Shown here: positions 6,276 through 22,297 of the stretch, piece after piece
Position numbering within the stretch: position 1 is the first letter of the stretch
Layout of the letters: every line of letters begins with the position of its first letter
From: Nanobdellota archaeon
Lineage (GTDB): Archaea > Nanobdellota > Nanobdellia > Woesearchaeales > JAGLGH01
Direction: 5' to 3'
DNA length: 64,000 bases
Assembly: GCA_034723595.1 (NCBI GenBank)
Contig: JAYEPB010000078.1
Span: forward strand, 9,592 to 73,591
Notes under the pieces: generated by a model
Told to the model about the DNA's origin: nothing
What the model saw: the letters and a program-made list of their open reading frames with translations, nothing else
Database searches by the model: none
Position numbers and translations under genes: made by a program

Positions 6276-8315
6276 TGATGCTGGTGCTCCTTGAATAGTA
6301 GATTTGTTACTTACTTTTTTACCATAAATGTAAATATACTTCCAGGCAAATCCCTGTTTTCTTTCTATCTTTACATCAAATCCACACTGGCTAAATAGAT
6401 CTTTGATTGCTTTATTATCAGAAAGCCAATCTATGTTAGGAATTATATCAAAAAATTTGTTATACTCAACAAAACATATCTTTGCGCCTTTCTTAAGCAG
6501 TTTGTTCATGTGTGTCAGCACCTTGACAGGATTCTGAACATAACCGAGCATGCCTACAGATACGATGACATGCACATTAGGGACATCAGGATGCACTCTT
6601 TTATGATGAAGAGGGTCATGTAGTAAAGTAATATGCTTATGGCCTCTTTTCTCCATCCTCTTTTTGGTTATTGAAATATCTCGTTCACAGATATCTGTTG
6701 CATAGATTCTTCCTTTCTTCCCTACTTCTTCAGCAAGATGCATTGTGAGTGTCCCGACAGAACACCCAAATTCAAGAACTGTTTTTCCATGTATATTACC
6801 TATTAGCTTTATGACCTCTTTCCTCACTTTCACAGGCAGCATCAGGCGTTCAGTAAAGAGTGCTACATAGGCCAGCACATTATTGGTCTTCCTGACAGCC
6901 TTTGGATTATAATACATCTCAAGAAGGAAGTATATCGGCAGACCTACAAAAATCAGCGAGGCACCTAATCTCAGAATGTGCGTAGCGCCAGCTGTTTCTT
7001 TTATCCACATCCCTAATAAAAATATATTAAAGAGAATCACAATAAGAGGTCCAACCCTTGCAAAAGGAACCCGGTAGTATCTTTTGAGATTAGGTTTCTT
7101 ATCCCTTAATAAAGTCAGGCTGAATAAGACAGCAGAATACATTATCAATACTATTGGCACCAGAAGGTGCAGCAGAGTCAGGTAAGATCCTGCAGCGATA
7201 AAGACCAGAATAGAACTGATGATAGTCTGCAGTATTATGGCTTTGTGAGGTGTATAATATTTTGGATGTATCTTTGCAAATTGAGGAAGGAAAAGCTTGT
7301 CTTTTGCCATGGCAAGTATCAGGCGCGGTGCTGCAATGATCCATCCTGCAACTGATCCAATAATAGCCAGATAAACAAGCAATGTAAATATCGTTGAACC
7401 AATTGCCCCAAAGTGGACTGCTGCAAGGTCTGAAAGCGGCGCAGAGGACTCGCCAAATGTCTGCCAGGGAATCGCACTCATGGATGTTATAACAAATAAT
7501 AAGGAGATGACTGCTATTATAATGGTTCCATAAATTAATGCTTTAGGCATGACTCTTGCTCCATCTTTAGTCTCAGCAGCAAGAAAAGTGGAAGTCTCCC
7601 ATCCAAAAAATGTTTCTGCGACCAAAAATATTGTAACCATTATAGAAGATATAGGAAATACAAAAAAAGGGCTGAGGGTTGATGTCTTAAATGATGCTAA
7701 TCCTGGAATAATCAGCGCAAGCAGAGTGCCTATAGTGATGAAAGCAAAAGTCACGAGCATTACTGAACTTGTTTTCATTCCATGATATGCGATAAAGTTA
7801 AATATGAATATGAATGTAAGTGAGAAAAGTATCTGGGCCCAGACTATTTGCCCCGGAATAAGATATTGTATTGCTCCTACAACAAGCATAGCGATTGTGA
7901 TATTCCCAGCTATCAGTGTGCCCCAGCCGATTATGAAACTCCCGAACCTGCCATAAGCCTGCTTGCAGAATTCATATATCCCTCCTTCTTTTGGAAACAT
8001 GCTTGTTAACTCAGCAAAGCACATCGCGATATATATAGCAATGATTGAAAGTATGGCCCATGAAATCAATGAAGCAGGGCCTGCATGCTTGGCTCCTAAA
8101 GCAGGAAGGAAAAATATTCCAGTTCCCATTATAGAATTGATTGTGATTAGAAGGATTACTTTGAAGCTAAGTACTTTCTTCAGTTCTGTCATGGTGTGGA
8201 TATGGTGTTGAATGTATATAAAATGTTCGTTTTTAAAAATTTTGTTTTGTAACATTTTTAATGCTTGAATTGGAAAGAAAGAATATTTAAAAGAAAAAAT
8301 ATTTTTGGCTTGCAA
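6261..8315 (-). CDS. APC-family amino-acid permease fused to a C-terminal class I SAM-dependent methyltransferase domain
   Basis: About 460 aa with roughly 12 TM helices typical of amino acid/polyamine permeases. C-terminal domain carries MTase motif I VLEFGCSVG, post-I acidic IYATDI and motif II HVIVSVGMLGYV. Confidence 0.6.
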   Translation of the reverse strand: MQAKNIFSFKYSFFPIQALKMLQNKIFKNEHFIYIQHHIHTMTELKKVLSFKVILLITINSIMGTGIFFLPALGAKHAGPASLISWAILSIIAIYIAMCFAELTSMFPKEGGIYEFCKQAYGRFGSFIIGWGTLIAGNITIAMLVVGAIQYLIPGQIVWAQILFSLTFIFIFNFIAYHGMKTSSVMLVTFAFITIGTLLALIIPGLASFKTSTLSPFFVFPISSIMVTIFLVAETFFGWETSTFLAAETKDGARVMPKALIYGTIIIAVISLLFVITSMSAIPWQTFGESSAPLSDLAAVHFGAIGSTIFTLLVYLAIIGSVAGWIIAAPRLILAMAKDKLFLPQFAKIHPKYYTPHKAIILQTIISSILVFIAAGSYLTLLHLLVPIVLIMYSAVLFSLTLLRDKKPNLKRYYRVPFARVGPLIVILFNIFLLGMWIKETAGATHILRLGASLIFVGLPIYFLLEMYYNPKAVRKTNNVLAYVALFTERLMLPVKVRKEVIKLIGNIHGKTVLEFGCSVGTLTMHLAEEVGKKGRIYATDICERDISITKKRMEKRGHKHITLLHDPLHHKRVHPDVPNVHVIVSVGMLGYVQNPVKVLTHMNKLLKKGAKICFVEYNKFFDIIPNIDWLSDNKAIKDLFSQCGFDVKIERKQGFAWKYIYIYGKKVSNKSTIQGAPASSVKT

Positions 8316-8675: not shown

Positions 8676-8817
8676 ACTTTTTTCGCAAATGTTCCGAATC
8701 CAAAGTTCTTCCGATATCATCGGAAAATATAGTGTTTTTTTACCGTAATCCATTTTAAAGGCAACAGATTTTGGATGATTAATAAAAATTCCAACAAAAG
8801 TTGGGGAGGAAAATAAA
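8676..8817 (+). promoter_or_regulatory. conserved leader / divergent promoter region, copy 1 of 2, with palindrome TTCCGAT-ATC-ATCGGAA at 8709-8725 and a GGGGAGG SD
   Basis: About 140 bp that is about 85% identical to 10068-10211 (seen directly). Contains a 7-bp inverted repeat and a strong Shine-Dalgarno 8 nt before the ATG. Confidence 0.55.
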
Positions 8818-9306
8818 ATGGGAGAGCCATTACCACTTATTGTTAAATTACAAGAATATACAGATAAATACGAGGGATTAATGAAAAGAATAGATGAATC
8901 CTATCTGAATGAGAATTTTGGAACATTGCTAGGTTATATCCTTAGTGCGACCCCAGACCAATTGAATCCAGGAGGATACACTAATGATGAAAAAGAATTC
9001 GCACAAATGTTGGGAGATTATTATAATATAAATAAAAAGGCAGAGGATTATTTAGAAAACTTGAGAAATAAAAACGGAAAAGATTATCCAATAGACTTAA
9101 GAGCCCTAGCTTCTAGAAAAGAGATAAGAATGGGTGATGAGATAATGCTAAATGCAATAGATAAAAACAAAAGTTTAATCGAATGCCCGTTAGATGATAT
9201 AATAAATGAGTATAGTGAAAGAATTATTAAAGTAGAAAATATAGAAGATACGGATTATAAATATAGATTCATAGATCTCATTATCTCAAGATATTGCTGG
9301 GATTAA
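8818..9306 (+). CDS. hypothetical protein, paralog A of the 10212 gene (shared DESYLNENFGTLL.YIL N-terminal block)
   Basis: ORF. The first ~40 codons and the leader are near-identical to those of 10212-10637 at nucleotide level; the rest is diverged. Ends RYCWD, with no Gly-Gly. Confidence 0.5.
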   Translation: MGEPLPLIVKLQEYTDKYEGLMKRIDESYLNENFGTLLGYILSATPDQLNPGGYTNDEKEFAQMLGDYYNINKKAEDYLENLRNKNGKDYPIDLRALASRKEIRMGDEIMLNAIDKNKSLIECPLDDIINEYSERIIKVENIEDTDYKYRFIDLIISRYCWD

Positions 9307-9331: not shown

Positions 9332-10027
9332 TTATTTTTTTAAAAATTTTATTCCAATCTGTTCTTCAATCTTTTTCCAGTTATAAATCAAAGCATCCTC
9401 ACACATATTGCATAACTTCAAAGTATCAGGATAATAATTAAATACACAACTATGTGTTACATTATAGGCTTTAGCAAGCTTCTTAGAACCATTTATTGCA
9501 TCCCCATGATGTTCTCCCAGTCCTAAAAGATGAACTGCTTCGTGTTTTGCAATTTTCTTTATAAAATCTCTTGCAGATTGTCTCTCTTTTGGAAGGTACA
9601 TATAAATAATTCCACTTCCAAATGCACCAAATCCCCAATCATAGTTATTATATGGGGCTTTTTGATCAATTATAATAACAGATGCATGAAAGTTACTGGT
9701 TCTGTTTTTATTCATATAAACTTCATCAGCAGAATAACTAATAGATTCAAAAAGATTACCCCCACATCTTAAATTATTTACAGCAGTTTCAACAGAATTA
9801 TCTACATAAGAATTCTTTACTTTAAAATCCATATTGAGTTCGTGAATTAATTCAAATAAGCCTTGTTTAACTGGTTCAACACAATAATCTGGAACATTTG
9901 AATAATTAAAGATTCCAATCTCCTTGCTCATAATCCAAGCAGGAAGTCTACTAAGTCTAATGTCAAGATAATTCATATACCTCCATTTCTGTTTGTAGAT
10001 TTCAGATTCATCCTTGTTATTTATCAT
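9332..10027 (-). CDS. HExxH zinc metallopeptidase, archaemetzincin-like
   Basis: HEAVHLLGLGEHH zincin motif followed by a Cys cluster (SCVFN...CNMC), reminiscent of the archaemetzincin HExxHxxGxxxH plus CxxC arrangement. The spacing is off by one residue, so the family call is tentative. Confidence 0.45.
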   Translation of the reverse strand: MINNKDESEIYKQKWRYMNYLDIRLSRLPAWIMSKEIGIFNYSNVPDYCVEPVKQGLFELIHELNMDFKVKNSYVDNSVETAVNNLRCGGNLFESISYSADEVYMNKNRTSNFHASVIIIDQKAPYNNYDWGFGAFGSGIIYMYLPKERQSARDFIKKIAKHEAVHLLGLGEHHGDAINGSKKLAKAYNVTHSCVFNYYPDTLKLCNMCEDALIYNWKKIEEQIGIKFLKK

Positions 10028-10067: not shown

Positions 10068-10211
10068 CAAATTTTCTCGCAAATTTTCCGAATCCAAAGT
10101 TCTTCCGATATCGTCGGAAAATCGAGTGTTTTTTTACCGTAATCTATTTTAAAGGAAGTAGGTTTTGGATGATTAACAAAAATCCCAACAAAAGTTGGGG
10201 AGGAAAATAAA
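10068..10211 (+). promoter_or_regulatory. conserved leader / divergent promoter region, copy 2, with palindrome TTCCGA-TATCG-TCGGAA at 10103-10119 and a GGGGAGG SD
   Basis: Direct nucleotide similarity to 8676-8817. Confidence 0.55.
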
Positions 10212-10637
10212 ATGACAAAACCATTTGTAGCAATGTTGGGTGATGACTCAAATAGAAATAAAGATATGAGACTTGTAAAAACAGTAGATGAATCTTATCT
10301 AAATGAAAATTTTGGAACATTATTGGATTATATTCTTAATCCAGGAGTTGATGAATTAAATTCAGGATATAATGATGATGAGACAAATTTTGCACAAACC
10401 TGGAAAGATCTTTATGATCAGAGCAAAAGCGAACCTAAAATTGAGATTGGTCTCTGCGCAATAGATAGAAATAAGCAATTTGTTCCATGTCCACTTCATA
10501 AGGTTCTTGGAGATTATAGTGATAGGTTTATAAAACCGATGAATGAGATTGGTGAAGATGGAAATGAATATAAGTATAATGGAATTGAATTGATTATAGC
10601 TGATCTTAGTGAAGGAGGATCAATGAGGTATTTGTAA
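10212..10637 (+). CDS. hypothetical 141-aa protein, paralog B. Gly-Gly lies 5 residues from the C-terminus (...ADLSEGG-SMRYL). First gene of the E1/JAB operon.
   Basis: ORF. Its stop overlaps the start of the next gene (TAATG). Shares the DESYLNENFGTLL block with 8818. Confidence 0.5.
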   Translation: MTKPFVAMLGDDSNRNKDMRLVKTVDESYLNENFGTLLDYILNPGVDELNSGYNDDETNFAQTWKDLYDQSKSEPKIEIGLCAIDRNKQFVPCPLHKVLGDYSDRFIKPMNEIGEDGNEYKYNGIELIIADLSEGGSMRYL

Positions 10638-12103
10638 TGATATCTCAAATTCCTAAAGTATTTCTTGAAAATTTTAGAGAAAGTGATGAGTCATTCCTTA
10701 TACATCAAGGAATGATTTACACTTTACATTGTCCAACCAGTCAAAATAGTCTAAATAAATTATTCTATGCAAATAGAGATTTTAATCTATTCCAATCTGA
10801 AGATATTGACACATTACAGGAAGAATATCTTAATCATAGTAGGGATTCTATTGAGAACTTAGTAAGTGATTATATTCAGCATAATTATATTGAAAAACTT
10901 GAAAGATTAAAAATCAACATAGATTCTCAAAAGAATCTATTCCAAGAAACACAAAACAATTCAATTGAAAAATTAATTGTATTAGATATCTTTGATAAAT
11001 TTTGTAATCTCTGTAATGTCTCTAATTCTAATGGAAATAAGAATAACAAATCCAAAACTGTAGCTTCAAATTTAAAATTATCTGCAATCAATAAAACAAT
11101 GGGATTATCATCGTCATTAGATTATGCTGCTTTTGGGAAAACACCTTTTGCCAGATACCTAAATTCTATTTCTATGATGGTTCTTGGTCAAAGGGCTTAT
11201 TCCCTAAGGAAAGAAAATTCTATAACAAATAATTATGTCCAAATAAAAAATCATAAATATAAGATTTGTGAGTCCCAAACATTTGATAGATTTATTTTAG
11301 ATTACAAAAAGATTATCTCAAAGAGCATAACATCTGTGATTCAAAAGGAATCTAGTAACTATATAAATCAATTAAGCGAATTTAAAAAAGCGAAAACTGA
11401 ACTTGATATACTAATTAATCAAGAAAATCAGTTTAATGAATTAAAAGAAAGGGAAAGACGAGCAGAGATGTTCAATTGCACAATTGGGTTTAAGGCTCGA
11501 GGGAAAAATAATTCTCAGGATATATATGATATTTATATTAAATTAGATCCATATATCATGAAGAAAGATGATAATTATTATCAGTTTGATACTGTTAAGA
11601 TAGGTACTTCTCTAGCAGTATCTAGGAATCAAATTAAAATTACTAATAAACCAGAAGTTCTTACAAAAGAATATCACCACCCTTTTGTATGGGATTGGTT
11701 GAAAATTTGTGATAAGGGTTATAAAAAAGATAGATATGAAAGAGAGGGTGTTAATTTTGAAAATTTTAATGTTGATTATCTGGATGGTTTTGCGAGAAAT
11801 GTCGCAGTAGCTTTGAATGTTGCAAAAAAGATAATTGAGTATGGGTATAATGGGTCAAGAGTTTCTCCCGTCAAAAAGCTTAGTCCTTCAAAATTCCCAG
11901 AAGAATACATAAGGGGAGGTAAATCAGCAGCTTTGTCTACAGGTATAAGGATTGTTGATAATGATCTTTGGAAGGAAAATATTAACCCAAAAAAAAGCAA
12001 TATCAGATCAATTACGAGGATTAATACAGATAATCTTGAGAGTTATATGGTAAACTATCTCCAAAACAATCAGAATAATCTAATCTATTCTGAGGGGATG
12101 TGA
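10637..12103 (+). CDS. hypothetical 488-aa protein with a possible degenerate E2 (UBC)-like motif HPFVWDWLKIC
   Basis: Translationally coupled on both sides. The segment EYHHPFVWDWLKICDKG has the H-P-x...C spacing of the UBC HPN-x7-C active-site loop, but no other E2 landmarks could be verified. Confidence 0.45.
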   Translation: MISQIPKVFLENFRESDESFLIHQGMIYTLHCPTSQNSLNKLFYANRDFNLFQSEDIDTLQEEYLNHSRDSIENLVSDYIQHNYIEKLERLKINIDSQKNLFQETQNNSIEKLIVLDIFDKFCNLCNVSNSNGNKNNKSKTVASNLKLSAINKTMGLSSSLDYAAFGKTPFARYLNSISMMVLGQRAYSLRKENSITNNYVQIKNHKYKICESQTFDRFILDYKKIISKSITSVIQKESSNYINQLSEFKKAKTELDILINQENQFNELKERERRAEMFNCTIGFKARGKNNSQDIYDIYIKLDPYIMKKDDNYYQFDTVKIGTSLAVSRNQIKITNKPEVLTKEYHHPFVWDWLKICDKGYKKDRYEREGVNFENFNVDYLDGFARNVAVALNVAKKIIEYGYNGSRVSPVKKLSPSKFPEEYIRGGKSAALSTGIRIVDNDLWKENINPKKSNIRSITRINTDNLESYMVNYLQNNQNNLIYSEGM

Positions 12104-13581
12104 AAAAAATGATTTCATATATTCAGGATGATAGGCAAGTAAGAATTGATGGGTGGGGGCAAGATGGTCAGGAAAAAATAAGAAAAAGTAAACCATTAGT
12201 TCTAGGGTCAGATGTTCTTTCCCAAATGTTGTTAGTAAATTTGGCAGGACTTGGAGTAGGCAATATTATGCTTATGGATAATCAGAGAATAGGCAGAGAA
12301 GATAGATCTAACTTTCTTTATAAAAAAGAATATCAAAATGACATTTTTATAGGAAATAAGCGTGGAAAACAAATAAAAAAGATAGTAGAAAAAATAAATG
12401 ATAATATATCATTAATGTATAGACATTCTAAATTTCGGGAAGCATGGTTATATGATTTCAAGCCTTCAATAATATTTGATACTACAAATAATGTTATATC
12501 AAAAAGAGAAGCATTGTCATATAGCCTAAAATATGATATTCCCTTTATCAATATATGCGCTGATGAAAATAAAGCAATAATTACTGAATTTAATCCAAAA
12601 GATAGATGCAAAAAAGATAATGACCTTTTAGAATCTATAATCCTCAAGGAATTCTGCGATACAGAACAAGGACCAATTCCTTGCGGGGTTATAGCAGGTC
12701 TTGCAGCAGAAGAATTAAGAAAGCATGCAATAAATCTGAATAATAAAGAATCTGATAATCCTCTTAAATCTGGAGAAAGAATAATATATAATTTATATTC
12801 AGATTCTAGAGTTTCATTAGATTCAGAAGTTAATTCAAATCCATTCAGCTATCCTAGAGATGTTAAAGCTCTTTTGATTGGGGCAGGTGCTATCGGTAAT
12901 TATGTTGCATTAAATCTCTCACTTATTGGCGTAGGGAAGATTGATGTTCTTGATGGAGATGTAATTAAAGATCATAATCTAAATAGGCAGTTTGCATTCT
13001 ATGATAGAATAAAAAAAGATAAGGCAAAAGTGTTGAGTGAAAGAATAAAAGAATTCAACCCAGCTATCAAATCAGATTATTTTATAAAGATGCTTGATTC
13101 AGGGGATGGCGATATTTTTTCAAAGAACAATCCTGATGAAAAATACGATTTAGTATTTGGTTGTGTAGATAATCTTGAAGCAAGGAAACTTATTAATCAA
13201 TTTTGCGTGCGAAATTCCATTCCTTTAGTTGATGGAGCAACAGATGCTTTAAAAGGTCAAATAGCTGTTTATGACCCCAGAAAAAAAAGATGCTTGGATT
13301 GTCAATTTGATTATGATTATCGGATTGAACAGCGTAATGAAAGAAGGAAGAATTGGATTCAACAAAATGGCAATAGTTGTATTGACACAACAAACCCCAG
13401 TGTAGTTATCCCTAATATAATTATAGGAAGTGCTATGGTTGGAGAGGGATTGAGAGTTCTTTATGATAAATATAAACAAAAACCTCTAGAAGGATATTTT
13501 AAATATAATTCTAATGGGGGCGAGCGTATATCAAAAACAATGTTTAGAGGATATTTAAAAAATTGCGAGGCAGAAAAATGA
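12100..13581 (+). CDS. E1-like (ThiF/MoeB/Uba-type) activating enzyme with a tandem degenerate N-terminal and intact C-terminal adenylation domain
   Basis: N-domain RQVRIDGWGQDGQEKIRKSKPLVLGSDVLSQ...GVGNIMLMD mimics the E1 N-terminus, but the GxGxxG loop and the NLNRQ motif are lost. C-domain KALLIGAGAIGNYVALNLSLIGVGKIDVLDGDVIKDHNLNRQFAF, then GCVDNLEAR...VDGATDALKGQI, CxxC (RCLDC) and a candidate catalytic Cys in NSCIDTTNP. Confidence 0.7.
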   Translation: MKKMISYIQDDRQVRIDGWGQDGQEKIRKSKPLVLGSDVLSQMLLVNLAGLGVGNIMLMDNQRIGREDRSNFLYKKEYQNDIFIGNKRGKQIKKIVEKINDNISLMYRHSKFREAWLYDFKPSIIFDTTNNVISKREALSYSLKYDIPFINICADENKAIITEFNPKDRCKKDNDLLESIILKEFCDTEQGPIPCGVIAGLAAEELRKHAINLNNKESDNPLKSGERIIYNLYSDSRVSLDSEVNSNPFSYPRDVKALLIGAGAIGNYVALNLSLIGVGKIDVLDGDVIKDHNLNRQFAFYDRIKKDKAKVLSERIKEFNPAIKSDYFIKMLDSGDGDIFSKNNPDEKYDLVFGCVDNLEARKLINQFCVRNSIPLVDGATDALKGQIAVYDPRKKRCLDCQFDYDYRIEQRNERRKNWIQQNGNSCIDTTNPSVVIPNIIIGSAMVGEGLRVLYDKYKQKPLEGYFKYNSNGGERISKTMFRGYLKNCEAEK

Positions 13582-14741
13582 TTTCAGAAAAATTCAAACA
13601 GTTTGTCGAAAATTTCGATGTAGAAGGATATATTAGAAGATTTGAAGAAAGTGATTATTATAAAGAAAAATTTGTGCCAAAGATAAATAATATGATCAAA
13701 TCTCATTATCAAAGAGAAATAAAAAAAAGAGTAGAAAACTATGAAGGGAATAATTATGTTTATCCTGAATTCAGTAAAGTTAAGATAACGCAAAAAGCTT
13801 TAGATAAAGGGAAGTATATATCAAAAAGAGTTTGTGAATTTGCGGATTCAGATTATGAAATATATATGTATATGATTGGTGATAACTCCAATAAAGAACC
13901 TATCGTAGATGATTTTTATATAGGCATTGATCAAACTGTAGAACCTGATTATTGTAAAATCAGCCCATTCGGTAAAATTCGTACTTCGTATGATATAACA
14001 GATAATTTAGAAAAAAGAATTTTGGGGTGGAGTCATTCTCATGGTTCAATAGACACATTCCATTCTCGTAAAGATAGAAAAAACCTTCAAAAATTTGTCG
14101 CATCATATGGACTTTCTAAAAAGATTGATCTTTTAGACGATGAAGAAGGCGATGACCAATTATTGCATGATGTTTATTATACACCTAGTTTGGTATTTAA
14201 CAAATATATGTGGGAAACTAATATTCTGCCTTTTGCAGGAGTAGCTTTAGATTATACAAAATTTGGTAATAAAAAAAATACGAAATTCCATCTTAATGAT
14301 GATGTGGAGATTGAAGTAATTAAGAGTGATCCATTAACTAAAAAAGAGATGGAAGATATAGATGAAATGATTCTGGATAGAGTTAATCTTAAAGGTTTAG
14401 GTAAACTTAGAGATATTTATGAAAAAAGAACACTTGAGCAAAACTCTCCTATGGATAATGATATATCCTCTATTTTAGAAGAGCATAGTCCTGATTATAA
14501 TTCTTTAGATAAAAGTAGTCTTATAGGTCTGATTAGGAAACAAGAATCAAAATATAAGAGTCTTTTTGAAAAGTATGGAACAATTGTTAAAGATTATAAC
14601 TATTTACAGGATAAATATCATGATTTAAAAAATAAAAATAGTTCATTGAGATCAATTGTTATGAAATGTAAAAAATATATCAAGAATCAGGTCAAACTAA
14701 AAGGAGTTAAGCACCAACGAGAAAATGTCAAAAATAATTGA
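13578..14741 (+). CDS. JAB/MPN+ (JAMM) metallopeptidase, deubiquitinase-like
   Basis: JAMM motif H-x-H-x7-S-x2-D present as HSHGSIDTFHSRKD, with an upstream Glu candidate. ATG at 13578 overlaps the E1 stop (ATGA). The ORF track starts earlier, at a TTG at 13563. Confidence 0.65.
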   Translation: MISEKFKQFVENFDVEGYIRRFEESDYYKEKFVPKINNMIKSHYQREIKKRVENYEGNNYVYPEFSKVKITQKALDKGKYISKRVCEFADSDYEIYMYMIGDNSNKEPIVDDFYIGIDQTVEPDYCKISPFGKIRTSYDITDNLEKRILGWSHSHGSIDTFHSRKDRKNLQKFVASYGLSKKIDLLDDEEGDDQLLHDVYYTPSLVFNKYMWETNILPFAGVALDYTKFGNKKNTKFHLNDDVEIEVIKSDPLTKKEMEDIDEMILDRVNLKGLGKLRDIYEKRTLEQNSPMDNDISSILEEHSPDYNSLDKSSLIGLIRKQESKYKSLFEKYGTIVKDYNYLQDKYHDLKNKNSSLRSIVMKCKKYIKNQVKLKGVKHQRENVKNN

Positions 14742-14790
14742 TCTTGATGAGAGGGTATTGATGTTTTTTAATTAAAATGGGCAGTCCCTT

Positions 14791-16824
14791 ATGATAAGAA
14801 GAAAAATAGAACAAATATTAGCGAATGAAAATAAAAGAATTAATGTAAATAATGTTAATCAAAATAGTCTATCGAATAATCTTCTTGCAGTGTATTTTTT
14901 AGATAATATTCCTGATAAAAATCTTGCTATTGATGATTTGATTATTAATGATTTTTTGTATAAATTTATATCTTCTGAAGAGAAGAATAAGATTTATAAT
15001 CTTAATGAGGTAATCTCAAAATTATCAAAAGTAGATGAGAATCAAGTGAATAAATCAAAGAGTAAGAAAATCTTAATGATCCCTAAAATAAATATCCAAA
15101 TGACCTTAGCGATAGATTCTTATCTTGATTTGATTAAAAATGAAGAATCTTTGGAAATTATAACTGGATTAAAGTCAAAAGATGATTTAAAGGCATTACT
15201 GTTGATTGATAGAATTTCTGGTACTCAGAAGTATAGTGATTTAGAGTTTGTTATTGATAAAAAAGATTGCGTTGAGAAAAATGCGATTATAGCTGCAAAG
15301 TATTCAACAGAACTATCAGCCCTCTCAAAATCAGATTCTAACCTAAAATCTTCATATCAGATATTAAATAATCTTCCATCTGATTTTACTCTGACTGCTA
15401 TAAAACAAATCAAGAAGATAAATCAGGAAGTCACAGATTCCAGTATTGATTATAAAATAATATCAAAGAATCCAAAACTAATAAAAAAGATAAATGCCGT
15501 AAAAGGCAGGTATAATAATTTAAAGAGACGTACAAGCAGCTGGTTGGATAAAGAATTAAATATATACCTTGAAAAGGAATATAAAAAGATTAATTTCAAT
15601 ATATCCAGAATGACAGACCTGGATTTGGCTATTGAAAAGACAGATAATGCTTCCAGGCAGTTGAATAAGATTAAAAATAAATATAAAGCAGCAGGCATAA
15701 CTCCTGCTAAATTTAATAAGAAATATTCTCAGCTTTCTGCCCAGCAAAATAAGCTTAAAAGTTATAATGTATTAAAAAAGGGATTTGTGAAGAATTGCGC
15801 AATAATCAAAAGAGAAAGGCAGCTGATAGAAGATAAAGGGGTAGATGATATTGCTGATTTAGTATCATTAATAAATAAAGAAAAAAACATATTGAATAAT
15901 GCAGATATATCAGAAACAAAGTTTAGTGATTTAGATACTGCTAAGCAGGATTATATCAATGAATCAAAAAGGTTTAAAGATGCAGTAAATCTGGAGATCA
16001 GTTCAATCAAGCAATATTTGAATCATAGCTGTGATATATTGATTGAGAAGGCTGGTAAATATACTGGTCTATCTGGACTTTTTGGTGAGAGAGATAAAGA
16101 ATCATTGGTAGGGTTGAAAGATGAGGCAAAAAGCTTAGCTGATCAGATTTTATTGGTGAAAAAAGAGTTTGGGATACCTGATTATGTGATTCAGAAAAGC
16201 AATGAGCTTAGTAATTTAGTCGATAAACTTATTAAGAAAAATAAGTATACAATTTCTCAAAAGCTAAAGAGAGGTCTTAGTTATAAATATGCAGAAGCTG
16301 GATTGTTGGTTTCTAATTATCTCCCTTCAAAAGAGATTATTGGCGCAAGTGTTTTTTCTAGTTATCTAGAGAATGATAAATATAATATAATTCAAAAAGG
16401 CAATAAGACTATGAGTTTTGAGCAAAATTTGTCAAATCTTCCTCCTATAAATGATTTCAGCAGTGATTATATGGGTAGTTTAAAACAAAGTGACAATAAG
16501 ACTGCAAGAAAAACTTATGGTCTTGCATCAAGTCGCAAAGGGAAGAGACTAATCAATATCTTTGCCGCGGGATTAATATTCTCAATAACTTCTCTTGGGA
16601 TTTATGGGATTGTTAATCCTCAATCAACTTATGTATTGCAAAAGGAAGTAGAAACTATTGAAAAAACTGAAGATTATTCTAGCATCCATAAACCAGAACA
16701 TACAATATATGATTCTACAATTAGGGATATAGATAAGATTGTTGATAAAACGCAAAGAACATATGAATCAACAATAAGAGATTTAAAAAAGATGTTCAAT
16801 GGGAATCTTATAACACCAGATTAA
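14791..16824 (+). CDS. large Lys/Asn-rich coiled-coil protein with a C-terminal TM anchor; last gene of the E1/JAB operon
   Basis: 677 aa of low-complexity helical sequence with one hydrophobic helix near the C-terminus (LINIFAAGLIFSITSLGIYGIV). 50 bp downstream of the JAB gene, same strand. Confidence 0.45.
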   Translation: MIRRKIEQILANENKRINVNNVNQNSLSNNLLAVYFLDNIPDKNLAIDDLIINDFLYKFISSEEKNKIYNLNEVISKLSKVDENQVNKSKSKKILMIPKINIQMTLAIDSYLDLIKNEESLEIITGLKSKDDLKALLLIDRISGTQKYSDLEFVIDKKDCVEKNAIIAAKYSTELSALSKSDSNLKSSYQILNNLPSDFTLTAIKQIKKINQEVTDSSIDYKIISKNPKLIKKINAVKGRYNNLKRRTSSWLDKELNIYLEKEYKKINFNISRMTDLDLAIEKTDNASRQLNKIKNKYKAAGITPAKFNKKYSQLSAQQNKLKSYNVLKKGFVKNCAIIKRERQLIEDKGVDDIADLVSLINKEKNILNNADISETKFSDLDTAKQDYINESKRFKDAVNLEISSIKQYLNHSCDILIEKAGKYTGLSGLFGERDKESLVGLKDEAKSLADQILLVKKEFGIPDYVIQKSNELSNLVDKLIKKNKYTISQKLKRGLSYKYAEAGLLVSNYLPSKEIIGASVFSSYLENDKYNIIQKGNKTMSFEQNLSNLPPINDFSSDYMGSLKQSDNKTARKTYGLASSRKGKRLINIFAAGLIFSITSLGIYGIVNPQSTYVLQKEVETIEKTEDYSSIHKPEHTIYDSTIRDIDKIVDKTQRTYESTIRDLKKMFNGNLITPD

Positions 16825-17863
16825 TAGCCCAAACCAAGTATGCAGCATACAATCCAATCAGGAAATAGCCAGCTCTTCTGCCGATTTTCCATTTATGGGC
16901 AAGCAATAGGAAAAAGATTACAAAAACAGTAGCAAAAAGAAGTATTACTGAGCTGAAGATATTTGCAGTGCTCACAGGGATAGAAGATTTTGAGAGGGAT
17001 AATATCAAAACCCATGGCACGCCAAGACATATTAGAATATCAAAGATATTAGAGCCTATTGCATTGCTTATTGCCATGCCTCCTCTACCTTGCTTTGCAA
17101 CAATTACTGATGAGATTAGATCAGGGATAGAAGTGCCAGCAGCAAGGATTGTCAAGGCAATGATAACTTCTGGAATGCCAAGGATATGGGATATGTTAAT
17201 TGCGCTTTCAACTAATATCCAACTAAGACCTGCAATAACTGCAATTGATATGAGAAATACAAAATAATAATGTTTGGATGATGGGAAAAGTTTGTCTAAA
17301 AGAAGATCCAATGGTTTGGCAATCTTTTTCCATCTTTTGCCTTTACTCTCTTTTATCTTATTTTCTACTTTCTGGATTATATCATTATTTTTATATGGGA
17401 ATAGTTTTTTCCAGTTTATGACTGCAATAATATAGGTTATGTAGATGATTATGAATATCATAGCTTCGTTTAGGACTATCTGTCCATCTCTAAAAACAAA
17501 TAAGAGGATTATTATGGAAATTGAATAAAATAATGTATCTCTAATCACTGGCTGCCATGATAATACAGCTTTTCGAACAATAGCAGCAGCACCTATGATT
17601 ACCAGAATATTAAATAGAGCTGATCCAACAATCGTGCCTATGCCTATAGCTGCATGATCTCCAGGCTTAAGCAAAGCAAGAATTGCAACGAACAACTCAG
17701 GCGCGCTTGAACCTATTGCCATCAATGTAGCTCCAGCAGCATCAGATGATAGCTTAAGCTTTTTTGCTATCTTATCTAATGATCCAATAAAGTAGTTGTC
17801 GTATACTCTTGCAAGTAGGTAGAAAGAGATTAGTAGAGCAAAGATGAAGAGGATTATAGATAT
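16808..17863 (-). CDS. Na+/Ca2+ exchanger family (CaCA, YrbG/NCX_Mj-like) cation antiporter
   Basis: Two alpha-repeat signatures (GSSAPELF ... GTSIPDL) and about 10 TM helices. The in-frame region upstream of the first ATG/TTG (17725) encodes the expected TM1 and loop (IILFIFALLISFYLLARVYDNYFIGSLDKIAKKLKLSSDAAGATLMAIGSS). That stretch is open back to the stop at 17888-17890 and contains no ATG/GTG/TTG, so the exact start is unresolved. Confidence 0.65.
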   Translation of the reverse strand: MSIILFIFALLISFYLLARVYDNYFIGSLDKIAKKLKLSSDAAGATLMAIGSSAPELFVAILALLKPGDHAAIGIGTIVGSALFNILVIIGAAAIVRKAVLSWQPVIRDTLFYSISIIILLFVFRDGQIVLNEAMIFIIIYITYIIAVINWKKLFPYKNNDIIQKVENKIKESKGKRWKKIAKPLDLLLDKLFPSSKHYYFVFLISIAVIAGLSWILVESAINISHILGIPEVIIALTILAAGTSIPDLISSVIVAKQGRGGMAISNAIGSNIFDILICLGVPWVLILSLSKSSIPVSTANIFSSVILLFATVFVIFFLLLAHKWKIGRRAGYFLIGLYAAYLVWAINLVL

Positions 17864-17912
17864 TTTAATGGGATTGTAAATAAAGATTTAAAAAACTTTG
17901 TAATATCTTAGA

Positions 17913-18380
17913 TTAATCTGTGAATGTAAAATCTTGAATATTATTTGATAAAAAATCTTCTCTTTTCATTTCTTCAATTATGTAAAATGTCTGCTTTTCT
18001 ATGATATCAAATCTTTCTTCCAATGCTTCTATAAACTCTTCAATCTCTTTTATATTAGTGAATACTGCTTCAATTAAGTAATCATAGCCACTGTTAATTT
18101 TAAACAATGAATTGATATTTGGGCATTTATTTAGATATTCCCCACATTCCTTTTTATTTTCCTTAGCAACTTTAAGTATGATTTTTGCTTGTGTATTGTA
18201 GCCAATCTTATTAAAATCTATTAGGCAGGTGTGCTTTACTATCAAATCATTCTCAAAACCCTTTAATTTATCAAATAATGTTGACACAGGCACCCCTGTT
18301 TTCCTTGACATTTTTGTCAAAGATTCCCTTGCGTTGTTTCTTAATCTTGATACGATTTCTATGTCTTTGTTTTTAACCAT
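17913..18380 (-). CDS. Lrp/AsnC-family transcriptional regulator
   Basis: N-terminal HTH (ESLTKMSRKTGVPVSTLFDKLKGFE) and a C-terminal RAM-like domain. 155 aa. Confidence 0.6.
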   Translation of the reverse strand: MVKNKDIEIVSRLRNNARESLTKMSRKTGVPVSTLFDKLKGFENDLIVKHTCLIDFNKIGYNTQAKIILKVAKENKKECGEYLNKCPNINSLFKINSGYDYLIEAVFTNIKEIEEFIEALEERFDIIEKQTFYIIEEMKREDFLSNNIQDFTFTD

Positions 18381-18512
18381 TTTTTGTGCCTCACTTAATT
18401 ATTTTCGTTTTATTCGGAAATAAGTATACTTAGTTCTAGCCTACCATATATACTTTGTTAACACATTGTGTATATTAGTACATATATCCACATATTTTAG
18501 AAAAGTTTATAT

Positions 18513-19448
18513 ATGCGCAAGGAATTACACCCTTTTATGAAGCGAAAAGTAGTACGACACGGCTCAGCAACATTGACAATAAGCCTACCTTCAAAATGGG
18601 CAAAAAAGTTTGACATAAAGCAAGGGGATGAACTTGAGATTGAGGAGGAGGGAAGTTCATTAGCTATCTCAACTGAAAAATATTTAAAATTAAATGAATG
18701 TGAATTTGTTATTGATCCTGGAACAATTTCATACATTAGGAGTATTATTAGCAATTCCTATAAGAAAGGATATGATGTAATTAATTTAAAATTTGAAGAA
18801 CCAAATGTAATTGTAACAATTCAAAAAGTTGTTGATGGATTATTAGGATATGAGATAGTTGAACAAGGTCAAGGCTATTGTATTATTAAAAATGTTGCGT
18901 CAGGGCTAGAAACAGAATTTGAGTCTATGTTAAAGAAATCATTCTTTATGACTTTAACAATGGGAGAAATATGTCTTGAGGATATTAATAATAAAAAATT
19001 AAAAAACTATGAAGAAATTCGACAAATGAAAGATAATATAACAAAATTTACGAATTTCTGCAAAAGATTAACTAATAAGGCAAAAAAGAATCTTGACTCA
19101 AATTCATTTGCTTATCTTATTCTCTGGAGTTTAGAAAAGATTGCTAATGAATATAAATATATCTATCGTTATTTGTCTAAACATACAACAAATCAATTAT
19201 CAAAAAAAACATTGGATTATTTTAAGAATACAAATCAATTATTAAGGTTATATTTTGATGGATTTTATAAGAAAGATAATAAGATGATTAAAAATATTAC
19301 AACACTTAAAGATCAATATTTATATAAAGATTTATATGATGTATTAAAACAAACAAAACACCTAGATTCTGTTGTAATCCACCATCTTGCTAATATTATT
19401 AGAAGAGTATATGATATGACTGGTCCTTATTTTGGCATTTATCTCTAA
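18513..19448 (+). CDS. putative regulator with an N-terminal AbrB/SpoVT-type swapped-hairpin domain
   Basis: VVRHGSATLTISLPSKWAKKFDIKQGDELEI resembles AbrB/MazE-like DNA-binding barrels. The rest is helical and unassigned. Confidence 0.35.
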   Translation: MRKELHPFMKRKVVRHGSATLTISLPSKWAKKFDIKQGDELEIEEEGSSLAISTEKYLKLNECEFVIDPGTISYIRSIISNSYKKGYDVINLKFEEPNVIVTIQKVVDGLLGYEIVEQGQGYCIIKNVASGLETEFESMLKKSFFMTLTMGEICLEDINNKKLKNYEEIRQMKDNITKFTNFCKRLTNKAKKNLDSNSFAYLILWSLEKIANEYKYIYRYLSKHTTNQLSKKTLDYFKNTNQLLRLYFDGFYKKDNKMIKNITTLKDQYLYKDLYDVLKQTKHLDSVVIHHLANIIRRVYDMTGPYFGIYL

Positions 19449-22297
19449 ATCTTGTTTTTCAAAGCAACTAATTCATCTTCAACCTGCTGCATAGAATCAT
19501 ATCTTTTTTTAGGATTATATTCCAGGCATTTCATAATAACGCTTGCTAAATGAGGATTTATCTCTGGTTTTATATCCTGAAGACTCTTAGCTCTTAATTC
19601 TCCTTCATAAACCCCCTCTGCGAATTTAGTCTTATCTCCTTGTATATCCTGATAACTAATGGGTTTTTGTCCAGTCAAAGATTCATAAAGTAACACGCCA
19701 AAGCTATACTGGTCTGCTTTCTTGGTAGGAGATTCTCCACCAAGAATCCTTTCCGGAGCAGTATATTCTCTTACTCCTTTGATAGTACTTTGAGATTCTT
19801 TAAATCTTGAAAATGCTAAGTCCAAAAGAAATACCAACCCATTTCTGGCAACAATAACATTATCTTTTTTAATATCATTATGTGTAAATCCTTTTGTATG
19901 GATATAATTTAAAGAATATGCAGTTTTGGCAAAAACTTCAATTATTTCTTCTTCTGGTCGTTCTTGAGTGAAATATTGTTCAAATGTTTTTCCTTCAATA
20001 TATTCAGATATTAAACCAAGTGATTCTTTATCATTTAATTTCATTCTTTGGCTGCCTAAAAATTGTGGTAATGGTCTATATTGATAATTCTTAAAGTCAT
20101 CTCTAGACCTTGAAATTGTTTTGCTGTTTATTCTTTTTTCTTCCTTACTAATTTCATTAAGAGCTTTATCGATAGAGCCATATTTCTTAATTATTTTATC
20201 AACATTATCATTATCTAAATTTTTTGAAGGTAACTTTAAAATTTTAATAAAATCATCTTCAGTTTCATCCTGATCTCTTATTAAATAAATATTACTCCAC
20301 CCTCCATTTGTGAACTTATGAAGGATATCATAATCATCAATTTCAATCAGTGAACATTCTTTGAGTTCTTCAGATGATATACATTTATTTTCTTTTAAAA
20401 TTTGATTTAAATTTTTATAGTTCACATGTTTATTATGGACCAATTCTGTCAATTCAGAGATGATTTGCTCTTCAGTTTTATTCTGGGAGTATTTAGAATC
20501 AAGATAACTTTTAATAAATTCATATCCTTCATCTTCGATTGGTTTTATTTCAGGGGTGTTGACTGTTTCGGCAAGGTATCTTATTGATTTTGCAATTTCA
20601 CGAATAGAATGCATAGCATTAATTTTTTTTCTAAATGAATCTTTCTTATAAGACTGGATTCCTTTGTTATATAGTTCTAAAAACAAAGTTGGATTAATAT
20701 ATGCTAATTTGCCAAAACATTGATTAAATTTACTCTTATCAGGTTCCATAACTTCATCCCCCATCAATTCCCAATAATATTTATTTGCAGTTATAGAATC
20801 TTGCTCATAAAGATTAGGCAAATAATTAATCATATTCTGTTTTATCTTAGCATTTCCATTACCCCATAATTTTTTAAATAACTTCTTTGCAAACTTTTTA
20901 TTGGCTTGGAATAATTGTGGAAATACTTCTAAAACACTTAAGTTAACATCTTCCTCAGGATCTTTAATAGCTTTATAAAATAATTTTGATGCTAATATAG
21001 GATTTATTTCAAATAACTTGCCTAATGAATTAGCAGTGCCTCTTCTAACACTAGAATCATTATTGGCCATTCCTGCCAAATATAATTGTTCTAATTCATT
21101 ATTAGTCTGAAAATTAAGATAATCTATTTTAGTACTAATTAAATATCTTATGTGCTTCTGAAAACAACTTTCGCCTTCAGATATATCTTCAATTCCATTT
21201 TTATAATACTCAAAAGCCTTTCCAGGGCAGATATTAGAAATAGCAGAGAAGGAACTAAGAGTGTCCTTTTCCATACCAAAATTCCCTGTTAAACCATCTT
21301 CAAAATAAGTAACTGCAGTTTTAGGATTTACTTTAATTAAAGCATCAAGATGACCATAAAATGAAGATTTTATATCCTCATCAATAGTTTTCCCACCATT
21401 TTTCATTACATTCTCAAATAAAGTCTCTAAATATGTGGGTTGATACTTAGCTAATCTATTCAGAATTTCTCCTAATTCTCTTTCACTTAATTTATTCTTT
21501 GAAAATGTTTTCGTATAAATAATTGTCTTATCAATAACTTGTTTAGCTAATTCGAAATCTTTTGGAATCAAAGATTTAACTACTTCATGTAAATTATTTT
21601 CATAATCTAAGTAATCTTCATGAGATATTGCCATAGAGATTAAATCTTTTGTCAATTTAGGATTTGAAGCATAAGTATCTTTCAGGGATTTAATTAAATA
21701 CTGCCTTCCAGGCACTACATCTCCTGTTAAATCAGGGTCTGAAAAAAGCATATTAAATATTTTTTTAGATATCTTATGCCTATATTTTTTATCCAACATA
21801 GATTCATTTTTAATAAAATATCTATGAGCACCACATAAAAAAGGGCTAAGAGACCTCACAAATAAATTATTTTTATCCTTTATGTTTGGCTTATCTGCCA
21901 ATACCATTAATTTATTGTACATATATGATAAGGATTCATCATCACATTTCAAGAGAGAAGAGACTGCATATTCATTGATACCAGAAAGATATTGTTCTTT
22001 AGAAGAACCAACATAAAAACCCAAAGCTAATTTGGGATTAAATTTTATGAGCGCATCTAAGGATTCTACAAGCATTTCTTGTATATTCTTATTTTTAGTT
22101 TGCCAACCCTCTATATACAATTGACTAACTATTCGTTTTCTCCGTTCCCTTTCAATTTTATCTAATATTCTAGATTTTTGCTTAGAGTTCAAGCTAGAAT
22201 AAGATTCTTCAACACTAGACTCTAAAGATGCATGATTTTGACTCATATCCCATAGGAAGTGATAAAGAGTATTTAAATGTTTCTGTTTAGTTATCAC
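19445..22297 (-). CDS. eukaryote-like Ser/Thr protein kinase with a long N-terminal HEAT/ARM-type repeat region
   Basis: C-terminal about 300 aa with a Gly loop NGGWSNIY, Lys in IKILK, catalytic loop HNDIKKDN, DLA (DFG-like), APE and DQYSFGVLLYE. The N-terminal 600 aa has recurring repeats of the form (I/V)NP..A..(L/F)(Y/F)..(G/A)(I/L). Confidence 0.7.
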   Translation of the reverse strand: MITKQKHLNTLYHFLWDMSQNHASLESSVEESYSSLNSKQKSRILDKIERERRKRIVSQLYIEGWQTKNKNIQEMLVESLDALIKFNPKLALGFYVGSSKEQYLSGINEYAVSSLLKCDDESLSYMYNKLMVLADKPNIKDKNNLFVRSLSPFLCGAHRYFIKNESMLDKKYRHKISKKIFNMLFSDPDLTGDVVPGRQYLIKSLKDTYASNPKLTKDLISMAISHEDYLDYENNLHEVVKSLIPKDFELAKQVIDKTIIYTKTFSKNKLSERELGEILNRLAKYQPTYLETLFENVMKNGGKTIDEDIKSSFYGHLDALIKVNPKTAVTYFEDGLTGNFGMEKDTLSSFSAISNICPGKAFEYYKNGIEDISEGESCFQKHIRYLISTKIDYLNFQTNNELEQLYLAGMANNDSSVRRGTANSLGKLFEINPILASKLFYKAIKDPEEDVNLSVLEVFPQLFQANKKFAKKLFKKLWGNGNAKIKQNMINYLPNLYEQDSITANKYYWELMGDEVMEPDKSKFNQCFGKLAYINPTLFLELYNKGIQSYKKDSFRKKINAMHSIREIAKSIRYLAETVNTPEIKPIEDEGYEFIKSYLDSKYSQNKTEEQIISELTELVHNKHVNYKNLNQILKENKCISSEELKECSLIEIDDYDILHKFTNGGWSNIYLIRDQDETEDDFIKILKLPSKNLDNDNVDKIIKKYGSIDKALNEISKEEKRINSKTISRSRDDFKNYQYRPLPQFLGSQRMKLNDKESLGLISEYIEGKTFEQYFTQERPEEEIIEVFAKTAYSLNYIHTKGFTHNDIKKDNVIVARNGLVFLLDLAFSRFKESQSTIKGVREYTAPERILGGESPTKKADQYSFGVLLYESLTGQKPISYQDIQGDKTKFAEGVYEGELRAKSLQDIKPEINPHLASVIMKCLEYNPKKRYDSMQQVEDELVALKNKI

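Follow-up and report, generated by a model that had tools for sequence, protein, structure and literature searches.

Beyond eukaryotes, a small number of archaea (Caldiarchaeum, Asgard) and the bacterial Bil, Bub and CBASS systems are known to have complete conjugation cascades comprising an E1 enzyme, an E2 enzyme, a ubiquitin-like protein (Ubl) and a deubiquitinase. CBASS employs Cap2, an E2-E1 fusion that conjugates a CD-NTase. In this study, we analysed a 64,000-nucleotide stretch of DNA (hereafter 'the window') from a Nanobdellota archaeon (GenBank assembly GCA_034723595.1, contig JAYEPB010000078.1), in which a first-pass annotation had pointed to an operon of five co-directional genes (10212-16824, + strand) as a candidate Ubl-conjugation system because E1-like and JAB metallopeptidase genes are found side by side. 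This proposal has held up well. The E1 is built from an inactive adenylation domain (IAD) fused to an active adenylation domain (AAD) and scores far below MoeB and ThiF family cut-offs, and the JAMM active site of the peptidase is intact. The proposal can also be extended, because two of the three proteins that had been listed as unknown now have candidate roles. We consider it probable that the operon encodes a self-contained E1-E2-JAB cascade for ubiquitin-like protein conjugation.

The closest described systems share several design features that are relevant to this locus. BilD consists of an IAD, an AAD and a cysteine-bearing insertion in the crossover loop, and it binds zinc through two crossover and two C-terminal cysteines (PMC10557695). 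Up to nine residues that follow the glycine of BilA are removed by BilC (PMC10557695), and a nine-residue tail that follows the Gly-Gly of Caldiarchaeum pro-ubiquitin is removed by Rpn11 before activation by E1 (PMC5654768). Bil E2 proteins carry no classical histidine before the catalytic cysteine and have a histidine after it instead (CEHH in Type II). Bil Types I and II correspond to operon classes 6d and 6c/CEHH of Iyer, Burroughs and Aravind. Bub systems form oxyesters on serine and use a homodimeric peptidase-E1 fusion that lacks a catalytic cysteine, along with a Ser-His protease. A search of the full-text literature, with most subscription journals outside its scope, found no published Ubl-E2-E1-JAB system in DPANN archaea or Woesearchaeota.

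The five open reading frames were all found on the + strand with the sizes originally assigned to them: gene 1 (10212-10637, 141 aa), gene 2 (10637-12103, 488 aa), gene 3 (12100-13581, 493 aa), gene 4 (ending at 14741 and encoding 387 aa from the ATG at 13578, or 392 aa if the start at 13563 is chosen) and gene 5 (14791-16824, 677 aa). Genes 1 and 2 are joined by a TAATG sequence (10635-10639) and genes 3 and 4 by an ATGA sequence (13578-13581), both read directly from the DNA and both as first described. However, the overlap previously given as 'ATGA at 12100' was inexact, because the only overlapping start at this junction (...ATG TGA, 12098-12103) is a GTG at position 12100 (GTGA), with the next ATG at 12109. 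The coupling is nonetheless real. It covers genes 1 through 4 only, as genes 4 and 5 are separated by a 49-nt gap without overlap. A GGAGG ribosome-binding site lies 9 nt upstream of the gene 1 ATG.

Hidden Markov models built from the five operon proteins were run over all fetched loci. The first-pass annotation had proposed a check for conservation of the gene neighbourhood, and the same order, modifier-E2L-(JAB)-E1-JAB (where E2L denotes the E2-like product of gene 2), is found again in no fewer than nine distinct loci (25-90% protein identity), mostly in Woesearchaeota-like genomes. Because of this recurrence, the arrangement lies far beyond chance. The order modifier-E2L-E1-JAB is seen in the window and in loci L001/L012, L002, L005, L013 and L028, and the order modifier-E2L-JAB-E1-JAB is seen in L006/L007, L010/L011 and L029. 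The arrangement is incomplete in L003 and L008, and versions with a short E2L occur in L008/L009. E2L proteins of these loci can be as little as ~22-28% identical to that of the window, which indicates that the linkage between modifier, E2L, E1 and JAB genes is old.

Gene 3 encodes the two-domain E1-like enzyme that had been recognized from the outset. The Pfam ThiF model matches two stretches of the protein (2.4e-60). When the N-terminal 247 residues are searched alone, they match MoeB (4.6e-7) and SAE1 (4e-5), and also ThiF and NAE1, and the best Protein Data Bank (PDB) matches of the C-terminal half are the active adenylation domains of Uba1 and Uba6 (~2e-16; Uba1 1.7e-16), followed by SAE2, ThiF and MoeB. 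The first domain (aa 1-247, nt 12100-12840) has a degenerate P-loop (GSDVLSQ) and lacks the Gly-rich nucleotide loop, whereas the second (aa 253-493) keeps the GxGxxG loop (GAGAIGN, 12880-12900), the NLNRQ motif (12976-12990) and the Mg-binding Asp, and carries the sequence CVDNLEAR (13162-13185). NLNRQ and CVDNLEAR are kept across relatives. By these features, the protein is an E1 with fused inactive and active adenylation domains, in effect a single-chain pseudo-dimer.

A CxxC pair (Cys398/Cys401, 13291-13302) is followed, 26 residues later, by Cys427 (13378-13380), which sits in the crossover loop and is the candidate catalytic cysteine. A crossover-loop cysteine is present in 10/10 informative E1 relatives, including those of a bacterial clade. 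In the archaeal clade the CxxC is conserved and is accompanied by one or two cysteines at the extreme C-terminus, whereas the bacterial clade lacks the CxxC. The E1 proteins of the window and of L002 end in ...KNCEAEK (13558-13578 in the window), with one cysteine only (Cys489), and those of L001, L005 and L013 carry two (CGC, CGIC and CGGC). In these latter proteins, the two C-terminal cysteines would complete a four-Cys zinc site with the counterparts of Cys398 and Cys401, and the window E1 may bind zinc with three cysteines, or not at all. Because the chain runs on for only ~55 residues past the crossover region and ends in a Cys-containing tail, a ubiquitin-fold domain (UFD) could not be accommodated and is excluded.

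The same data bear on whether activation of the gene 1 C-terminus by the E1 serves some purpose other than tagging, such as sulfur-carrier chemistry (yielding a MoaD/ThiS/SAMP-like thiocarboxylate) or precursor-peptide modification as carried out by MccB or PaaA. ThiF, MoeB, SAMP-E1 and MccB are all among the sequence matches of the E1, and the gene 1 protein has no detectable similarity to ubiquitin, as such chemistry would allow. However, the best NCBIfam scores fall far under the curated cut-offs (146.9 versus 275.25 bits for ThiF, 126.5 versus 266 for MoeB, and 89.5 versus 450 for UbaA), and the enzyme is a fused IAD-AAD pseudo-dimer rather than a single-domain homodimer. Gene 3 is therefore not an ordinary MoeB or ThiF. 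Its assignment as a MoeB, ThiF or UbaA sulfur-carrier adenylyltransferase is also contradicted by its neighbours: no MoaD, ThiS, MoaE, ThiG, rhodanese or other sulfurtransferase was found among the immediate operon neighbours or the ten flanking genes scanned with Pfam, the remainder of the window lying outside that scan. Thus, the concern raised in the first-pass annotation, that gene 3 might prove to be a common MoeB/ThiF paired with sulfur-carrier genes, is not borne out. In addition, an E2-type protein with an invariant cysteine is always encoded next to the E1, and the residues that follow the Gly-Gly of the gene 1 protein are variable and sometimes absent, and so do not constitute a conserved peptide core. 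We also rejected a reading of the locus as a pathway of MccB type for ribosomally synthesized and post-translationally modified peptides. Overall, we judge a non-tagging function to be highly unlikely.

In the product of gene 2, a helical domain at the N-terminus (aa 1-277) is followed by a UBC-like domain towards the C-terminus (aa 278-445, nt 11468-11971). The latter carries the motif YHHPFVWDWLKIC (nt 11672-11710), of the form Y-x-HPFV-x6-IC, whose last residue is the candidate catalytic Cys358 (nt 11708-11710). A word-seeded search recovered four relatives only, whereas a profile search of 1.84 billion representatives yielded 139 cluster representatives, 76 of them below 1e-10. The family includes full-length proteins of ~430 aa and many shorter ones of 170-250 aa that match only positions ~290-440. 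Cys358 is the sole invariant column in an alignment of 56 sequences, and Y346, H348, P349 and F350 are conserved in at least 90% of them. Most family members contain HPFV-x3-G-x-IC, and the wider pattern HP-x8-C-x8-W/Y, with Trp in the consensus, has the same spacing as in UBE2D2.

Comparisons with known structures and E2 sequences converge on this same loop. A PDB profile search started from 3 gene 2 sequences found nothing. When the 56-sequence profile was compared with all PDB sequences, 19 matches were obtained, of which 14 are Rad6/UBE2A/B-type E2 enzymes aligned at the cysteine loop, with E values that individually range from 0.12 to 0.7; the matches at this loop were to E2 enzymes only. 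Likewise, an hhalign comparison of 128 C-terminal domains of the family with six canonical E2 proteins gave a probability of 78% (P=1.7e-5, 31 columns), compared with P=0.35 for a reversed E2 template. The canonical E2 template sequences used for hhalign were entered by hand, which limits that comparison; the PDB profile search is independent of them. The C-terminal domain is thus likely to be an E2-like conjugating enzyme domain. The 277-aa N-terminal domain probably supplies target choice. A match of the N-terminal region to the cell-wall-binding repeats of clostridial toxins (E 0.0027) was dismissed, as it is the sum of four individually insignificant stretches and was judged to be compositional.

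Gene 1 encodes the candidate modifier. Its C-terminus carries Gly135-Gly136 (nt 10614-10619) followed by the five-residue tail SMRYL (10620-10634), and Gly136 is invariant in the family alignment. Twelve homologs retain this glycine, with tails of 0-16 residues; the Gly-Gly (once Ser-Gly) stands four to six residues past the last hydrophobic strand, and the tails are not conserved. Word-seeded searches for gene 1 homologs returned only 6 proteins each. With a slash marking the position after the glycine, the ends read SEGG/SMRYL (window), SEGG/SMKYL (L002), SSSG/LS (L001), INGG/NG (L003), STGG/AYSLIFLESF (L005), TPGG/NSLDSICDYRG (L010), PTGG/QIGDAYES (L008) and TPGG/YI (L029), and in L006 YGGG is followed by the 16-residue tail LDSLMNHSNPSPKTDG. 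Two proteins end exactly at the Gly-Gly, with SVGG (L013, protein L013b) or IAGG (L028) directly before the stop codon. A gene 1 homolog lies directly upstream of the E2-like gene in every locus examined, and it is the sole protein of these loci that has a conserved C-terminal Gly-Gly. These features make the gene 1 protein a candidate ubiquitin-like modifier that would be made as a precursor, with a tail that the JAB peptidase would trim.

Another arrangement can be imagined in which gene 1 encodes a target or accessory protein and the E1 and E2L conjugate some other C-terminus, as Cap2 does with its CD-NTase, or in which the E2-like domain is a different type of cysteine enzyme that mimics the motif. 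The unverified fold of the gene 1 protein, the local nature of the similarity of gene 2 to E2 enzymes, and the presence of gene 5 and a metallopeptidase neighbour that have no assigned role all leave room for such an arrangement. However, it does not account well for a conserved C-terminal Gly-Gly found in the gene 1 protein alone and forming the exact end of two of its orthologs, for the constant company that gene 1 keeps with E2L, or for a PDB-wide search that yields only E2 enzymes at the cysteine loop. We therefore consider it very unlikely that the gene 1 protein is not the modifier or that the E2-like domain is a mimic.

The JAMM/MPN+ metallopeptidase assigned to gene 4 rests on its motifs. 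The catalytic site was said to be intact, and this is confirmed by the alignment of homologs: the Glu of DYEIYMY (13851-13871) and the sequence HSHGSIDTFHSRKD, which contains HSH-x7-S-x2-D (14034-14075), are conserved in 7/7 aligned proteins. Its PDB match is to a Caldiarchaeum Rpn11-like protein, although this match is weak (E 0.13). The C-terminal ~130 aa are likely to be helical or to form a coiled coil.

Several observations weigh against the assignment of this operon as a conjugation cascade. No RING or other E3 was found for the system. The gene 4 protein scores only 16.3 bits against the Pfam Prok-JAB model (E 0.009), under the curated cut-off of 25, and the window E1 has a single C-terminal cysteine where relatives have two. 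In gene 2, the Asn of the canonical HPN motif is replaced by Phe, and the similarity to E2 enzymes is local, extending over ~31 aligned columns around the active site. The Pfam E2 models (UQ_con and Prok-E2_A-E) match 0/76 of the family members scanned, nor was any other family shared among them. The AlphaFold2 model of the gene 2 protein, based on a 3-sequence alignment, is unusable (pLDDT 34), although its order of strands (281-335), loop and helices (384-435) is compatible with a UBC layout. The AlphaFold2 model of the gene 1 protein is also poor (pLDDT 58, 6-sequence alignment); its element order of b-b-a-a-a-b-b-a-b is compatible with a beta-grasp, but a Foldseek search with this model returned no significant match, and hhalign comparison of the gene 1 family with ubiquitin, NEDD8, SUMO and ISG15 gave no signal (P=0.6). 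Genes 1, 2 and 5 have no family match in Pfam, NCBIfam or PADLOC scans. The first-pass annotation had stated that the partner proteins do not resemble beta-grasp, E2 or RING components. This must be revised in light of the E2-like motif of gene 2 and the Gly-Gly with tail of gene 1.

From the domain identities of the E1 and JAB proteins, the E2-type motif with its invariant cysteine, the Gly-Gly with its variable tail and the gene order, all of which can be read in the sequence, we infer a series of chemical steps and a direction of transfer as follows. Gene 1 would be translated as a pro-modifier that ends in ...SEGG-SMRYL. The JAMM peptidase encoded by gene 4 is predicted to cleave after Gly136 to bare a di-glycine C-terminus, for which the JAMM trimming of Ubl tails in Caldiarchaeum and Bil offers a precedent. 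The E1 would then use ATP to adenylate the terminal glycine and would hold the modifier as a thioester on the crossover-loop Cys427, from where it would be handed to Cys358 of the E2-like domain. Finally, the gene 2 protein could join the modifier to lysines of its targets without a separate E3, and the JAMM peptidase might also act as the eraser that removes the tag.

Locus L029 (1142-10302) encodes three E2L paralogs, two JAB proteins, one E1 and a single modifier (the GG protein), and in one of the E2L paralogs HPLRWGGVGGIC replaces HPFV. This expansion suggests that E2L has diversified for different targets in L029. Together with the large N-terminal domain of E2L, the presence of several such paralogs in one locus suggests that E2L itself determines which targets are chosen.

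More distant cousins of the system were found through their E1 in metagenome-assembled genomes of Deltaproteobacteria/Syntrophobacterales (L014-L017; for example, L016 1865-9368). These loci encode a 124-aa protein that ends in ...QEGG/RSP, a ClpB/Cdc48-like AAA+ ATPase, a JAB-like protein and an IAD-AAD E1, which keeps the loop cysteine and is missing the CxxC zinc pair. Their E2L is distant (394 aa, E 1e-6 to 1e-8). When metagenomes were scanned with the E1 alignment, the only matches were three ThiF fragments that are unrelated to the system.

A more far-reaching reading is that the gene 1 protein (14-16 kDa) has a new, non-beta-grasp fold that has converged on the Gly-Gly terminus. The enzymes acting on it would be E1 (fused IAD-AAD) and E2 (HPx-Cys-W) proteins of a lineage that is common to DPANN archaea and Deltaproteobacteria and whose branch point lies close to the root of the canonical eukaryote-type cascade, with the N-terminal domain of the E2 as a built-in E3. 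We regard this combination of ideas as rather doubtful. If true, it would mean that tagging here is an independent system that needs no E3 and has a modifier family of its own, and would widen the host range of 'eukaryote-like' E1/E2 architecture well past Asgard and TACK archaea.

A conserved block precedes the modifier gene in several distant archaeal loci (L005 2541-5304, L006 3522-6358, L007 and L010). It encodes proteins of ~205, 92 and 366 aa and then a transglutaminase-core (DUF553-like) protein. Loci of the window type do not have this block.

The genomic setting bears on the purpose of the system. The genes around the operon are ordinary chromosomal ones, encoding an amino-acid permease-methyltransferase fusion, an amino-acid kinase, a Na/Ca exchanger, an AsnC-type regulator, a PhoU/AbrB-like protein and a Ser/Thr kinase. 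Likewise, L028 lies on a 269-kb contig among genes for SHMT, PGK, an aminoacyl-tRNA synthetase and shikimate dehydrogenase. No relatives of the system were found in viral contigs, phage records or plasmid records. The same conjugation chemistry could nevertheless serve antiviral defence as in Bil, in which case virion proteins of DPANN viruses would be tagged during infection. Ubl, E2, E1 and JAB make up the BilABCD set, and Bil also operates without an E3 and uses its JAB protein to pre-process the Ubl. In addition, members of the family are rare and patchily distributed and form clusters of only 1-2 proteins, as is common for defence genes, and a strongly conserved operator-like leader (described below) suggests inducible expression. 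The housekeeping flanks in the window and in L028, the upstream permease synteny shared by the window and L001, and the absence from viral, phage and plasmid collections all speak against such a role, as do the classical histidine that is retained here and missing from Bil E2 proteins, and PADLOC models that return nothing except generic Cap2-type E1 matches. Because of the flanks, the synteny with L001 and the absence from mobile and viral collections, a cellular role is weakly favoured over defence of the Bil type. We lean, with low confidence, towards a role in proteostasis or regulated tagging within the cell and away from a mobile defence island, and see antiviral defence as possible but on the unlikely side.

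Gene 5 of the proposed conjugation operon encodes a protein with a conserved N-terminal domain of ~145 aa followed by a long helical middle region. Its description as membrane-anchored agrees with a hydropathy scan, which reveals one hydrophobic span (aa 587-608, nt 16549-16614). Homologs follow the JAB gene in L001, L002 and L005, and the N-terminal domain matches the 648-aa protein of L005 with an E value of 3e-5, but the transmembrane span is limited to gene 5 proteins of the window type. The protein could serve as a target, a scaffold or a specificity factor; most likely, it is a target or scaffold that places the reaction at the membrane.

Upstream of gene 1, the opposite strand encodes a putative zinc metallopeptidase (9332-10027, - strand, 231 aa) that carries HEAVHLLGLGEHH and then a C...CxxC arrangement. 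Homologs adjoin the system in L001, L003 and L006, and L002 and L003 have a further HEFxH protein of 410-463 aa at this position. The 231-aa protein exhibits only weak similarity to M7/snapalysin peptidases (Pfam; PDB profile search E~1), and may be an accessory protease of the system.

Beyond the metallopeptidase gene lies the diverged copy of gene 1 and its leader that the first-pass annotation had noticed. This paralog (8818-9306, + strand, 162 aa) is 45% identical to the gene 1 protein, has an insertion of ~30 aa (YLENLRNKNGKDYPIDLRALASRKEIRMGD) and ends in ...SRYCWD. Because it lacks the C-terminal Gly-Gly, it presumably cannot be conjugated, and probably acts as a regulator or decoy instead. 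The ortholog in L003 (P0010) shares the insertion and likewise has no Gly-Gly, and P0119 is a natural fusion of an E2L domain with a gene 1-like domain that again lacks it. Thus, non-conjugatable versions of the modifier seem to form a maintained class.

Both gene 1 and its paralog are preceded by a non-coding leader of ~135 nt (10077-10211 and 8683-8817, respectively, both + strand). The two copies are ~93% identical and are the only ones in the window, where 0 are expected by chance. The element contains the box TTCCGAATCCAAA, the palindrome TTCCGA-N5-TCGGAA (TTCCGA-TATCA-TCGGAA in the copy before the paralog), the TATA-like sequence CCATTTTAAAGG and a hairpin, CCAAC-N4-GTTGG (CCAAC-AAAA-GTTGG in the copy before the paralog), that abuts the GGAGG ribosome-binding site. 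The leader is also present at L001 3390-3522, L002 1530-1665, and L003 1400-1538 and 3300-3435. Its mean column identity of ~85% (six genes, four genomes) contrasts with the 30-56% identity of the downstream proteins. Distant loci keep repeats of the TTCCG/CGGAA type, including three copies of CCGGAA-N3-TTCCGG in L013. No compensatory changes that would support an RNA structure were seen among the leader copies, and the leader is probably an operator and promoter for some regulator. A scan for sigma-70 promoters and terminators was uninformative, as the counts were near the shuffled expectation and the host is archaeal. The window has a G+C content of ~30%, and no tRNA or Rfam features were found in it.

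Several neighbours of the system were recorded as separate observations. The amino-acid permease, which carries a fused methyltransferase domain of the class I SAM type (6261-8315, - strand, 684 aa by first start), occupies the same upstream position in L001. Regulators of the AsnC/Lrp family reside within a few kilobases of the system in the window (17913-18380, - strand), in L006 (two, 169-633 and 2918-3421) and in L029 (two, 14317-19302). A large Ser/Thr protein kinase with a repeat-rich N-terminus is encoded nearby in the window (19445-22297, - strand, 950 aa), and a kinase-methyltransferase fusion is found in the same region of L029 (14317-19302).

If the operon functions as proposed, it would represent a further lineage of conjugation cascade in genome-reduced DPANN archaea, with a eukaryote-style pair of E1 domains and a classical HP-x8-Cys E2 loop. 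The modifier and E2 families escape every curated family library, and so standard annotation misses whole ubiquitin-like systems. The reading also provides a testable function for ~140 E2-like cluster representatives that are so far uncharacterised, and for the GG-ended proteins paired with them. The compact five-gene set with its unusually conserved leader would be suited to studies of E3-independent target selection. Should its role lie in host-symbiont interaction or virus defence, it would reveal a new side of DPANN biology.

Among the known systems, eukaryotic E1 enzymes (Uba1/Uba6, SAE1-SAE2 and NAE1-UBA3) share with the gene 3 protein the IAD-AAD pseudo-dimer and the AAD motifs and provide its best PDB matches, and SAE1 also shares the N-terminal DRQxR-x-GW motif. 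However, the gene 3 protein lacks the FCCH/SCCH catalytic-Cys domains and the UFD, and has only 493 aa. Bub and the Cap2/Cap3 genes of Type II CBASS likewise bring together E1-, E2- and peptidase-type genes in one operon. Unlike Bub, the present system has a conserved cysteine in both the E1 and E2L and a stand-alone JAMM peptidase. A CBASS reading was considered and rejected, as no nucleotidyltransferase is present in the locus and the E2 and E1 functions that are fused in Cap2 are encoded here by separate genes.

The operons of Caldiarchaeum subterraneum and Asgard type (Ub, E1-like, E2-like, small RING and Rpn11-like) have in common with this locus an archaeal operon structure, a pro-modifier tail after the Gly-Gly, an E2 loop of the form HPx-Cys and a JAB protein whose best, although weak, PDB match is the Caldiarchaeum Rpn11-like protein. 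They differ in having a RING E3, for which no counterpart was found here, and in their gene order. The locus described here has a fifth gene, its modifier and E2 are missed by the Pfam ubiquitin and UQ_con models, and its E2 is three times larger.

The resemblance to BilABCD extends to the four-gene core of Ubl, E2, JAB and E1 without an E3. It also includes the single-chain IAD-AAD E1 with a crossover-loop cysteine, a crossover CxxC and C-terminal cysteine and no UFD, and a Ubl with extra residues after the conserved glycine, which in Bil is pre-processed by the JAB protein. However, the E2 keeps His348-Pro349 before Cys358, both near-invariant, and because it retains this classical histidine, which Bil E2 proteins lack, the system fails the Bil E2 signature. 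Gene 2 also has a 277-aa N-terminal domain, and ~26 residues separate the CxxC from the loop cysteine of the E1, compared with a CYS domain of ~80 aa in Bil. Moreover, no beta-grasp can be recognised in the sequence of the modifier, there is a fifth gene with a membrane-anchored product, the host is a DPANN archaeon and PADLOC gives no Bil-type match. Among the PDB matches listed, the E1 is nearer to Uba1, Uba6 and SAE2 than to any Bil chain. Judging from its genes and motifs, then, the system would operate in the manner of Bil and of the ubiquitin operons of Caldiarchaeum and Asgard archaea, from both of which it differs in the features named above.

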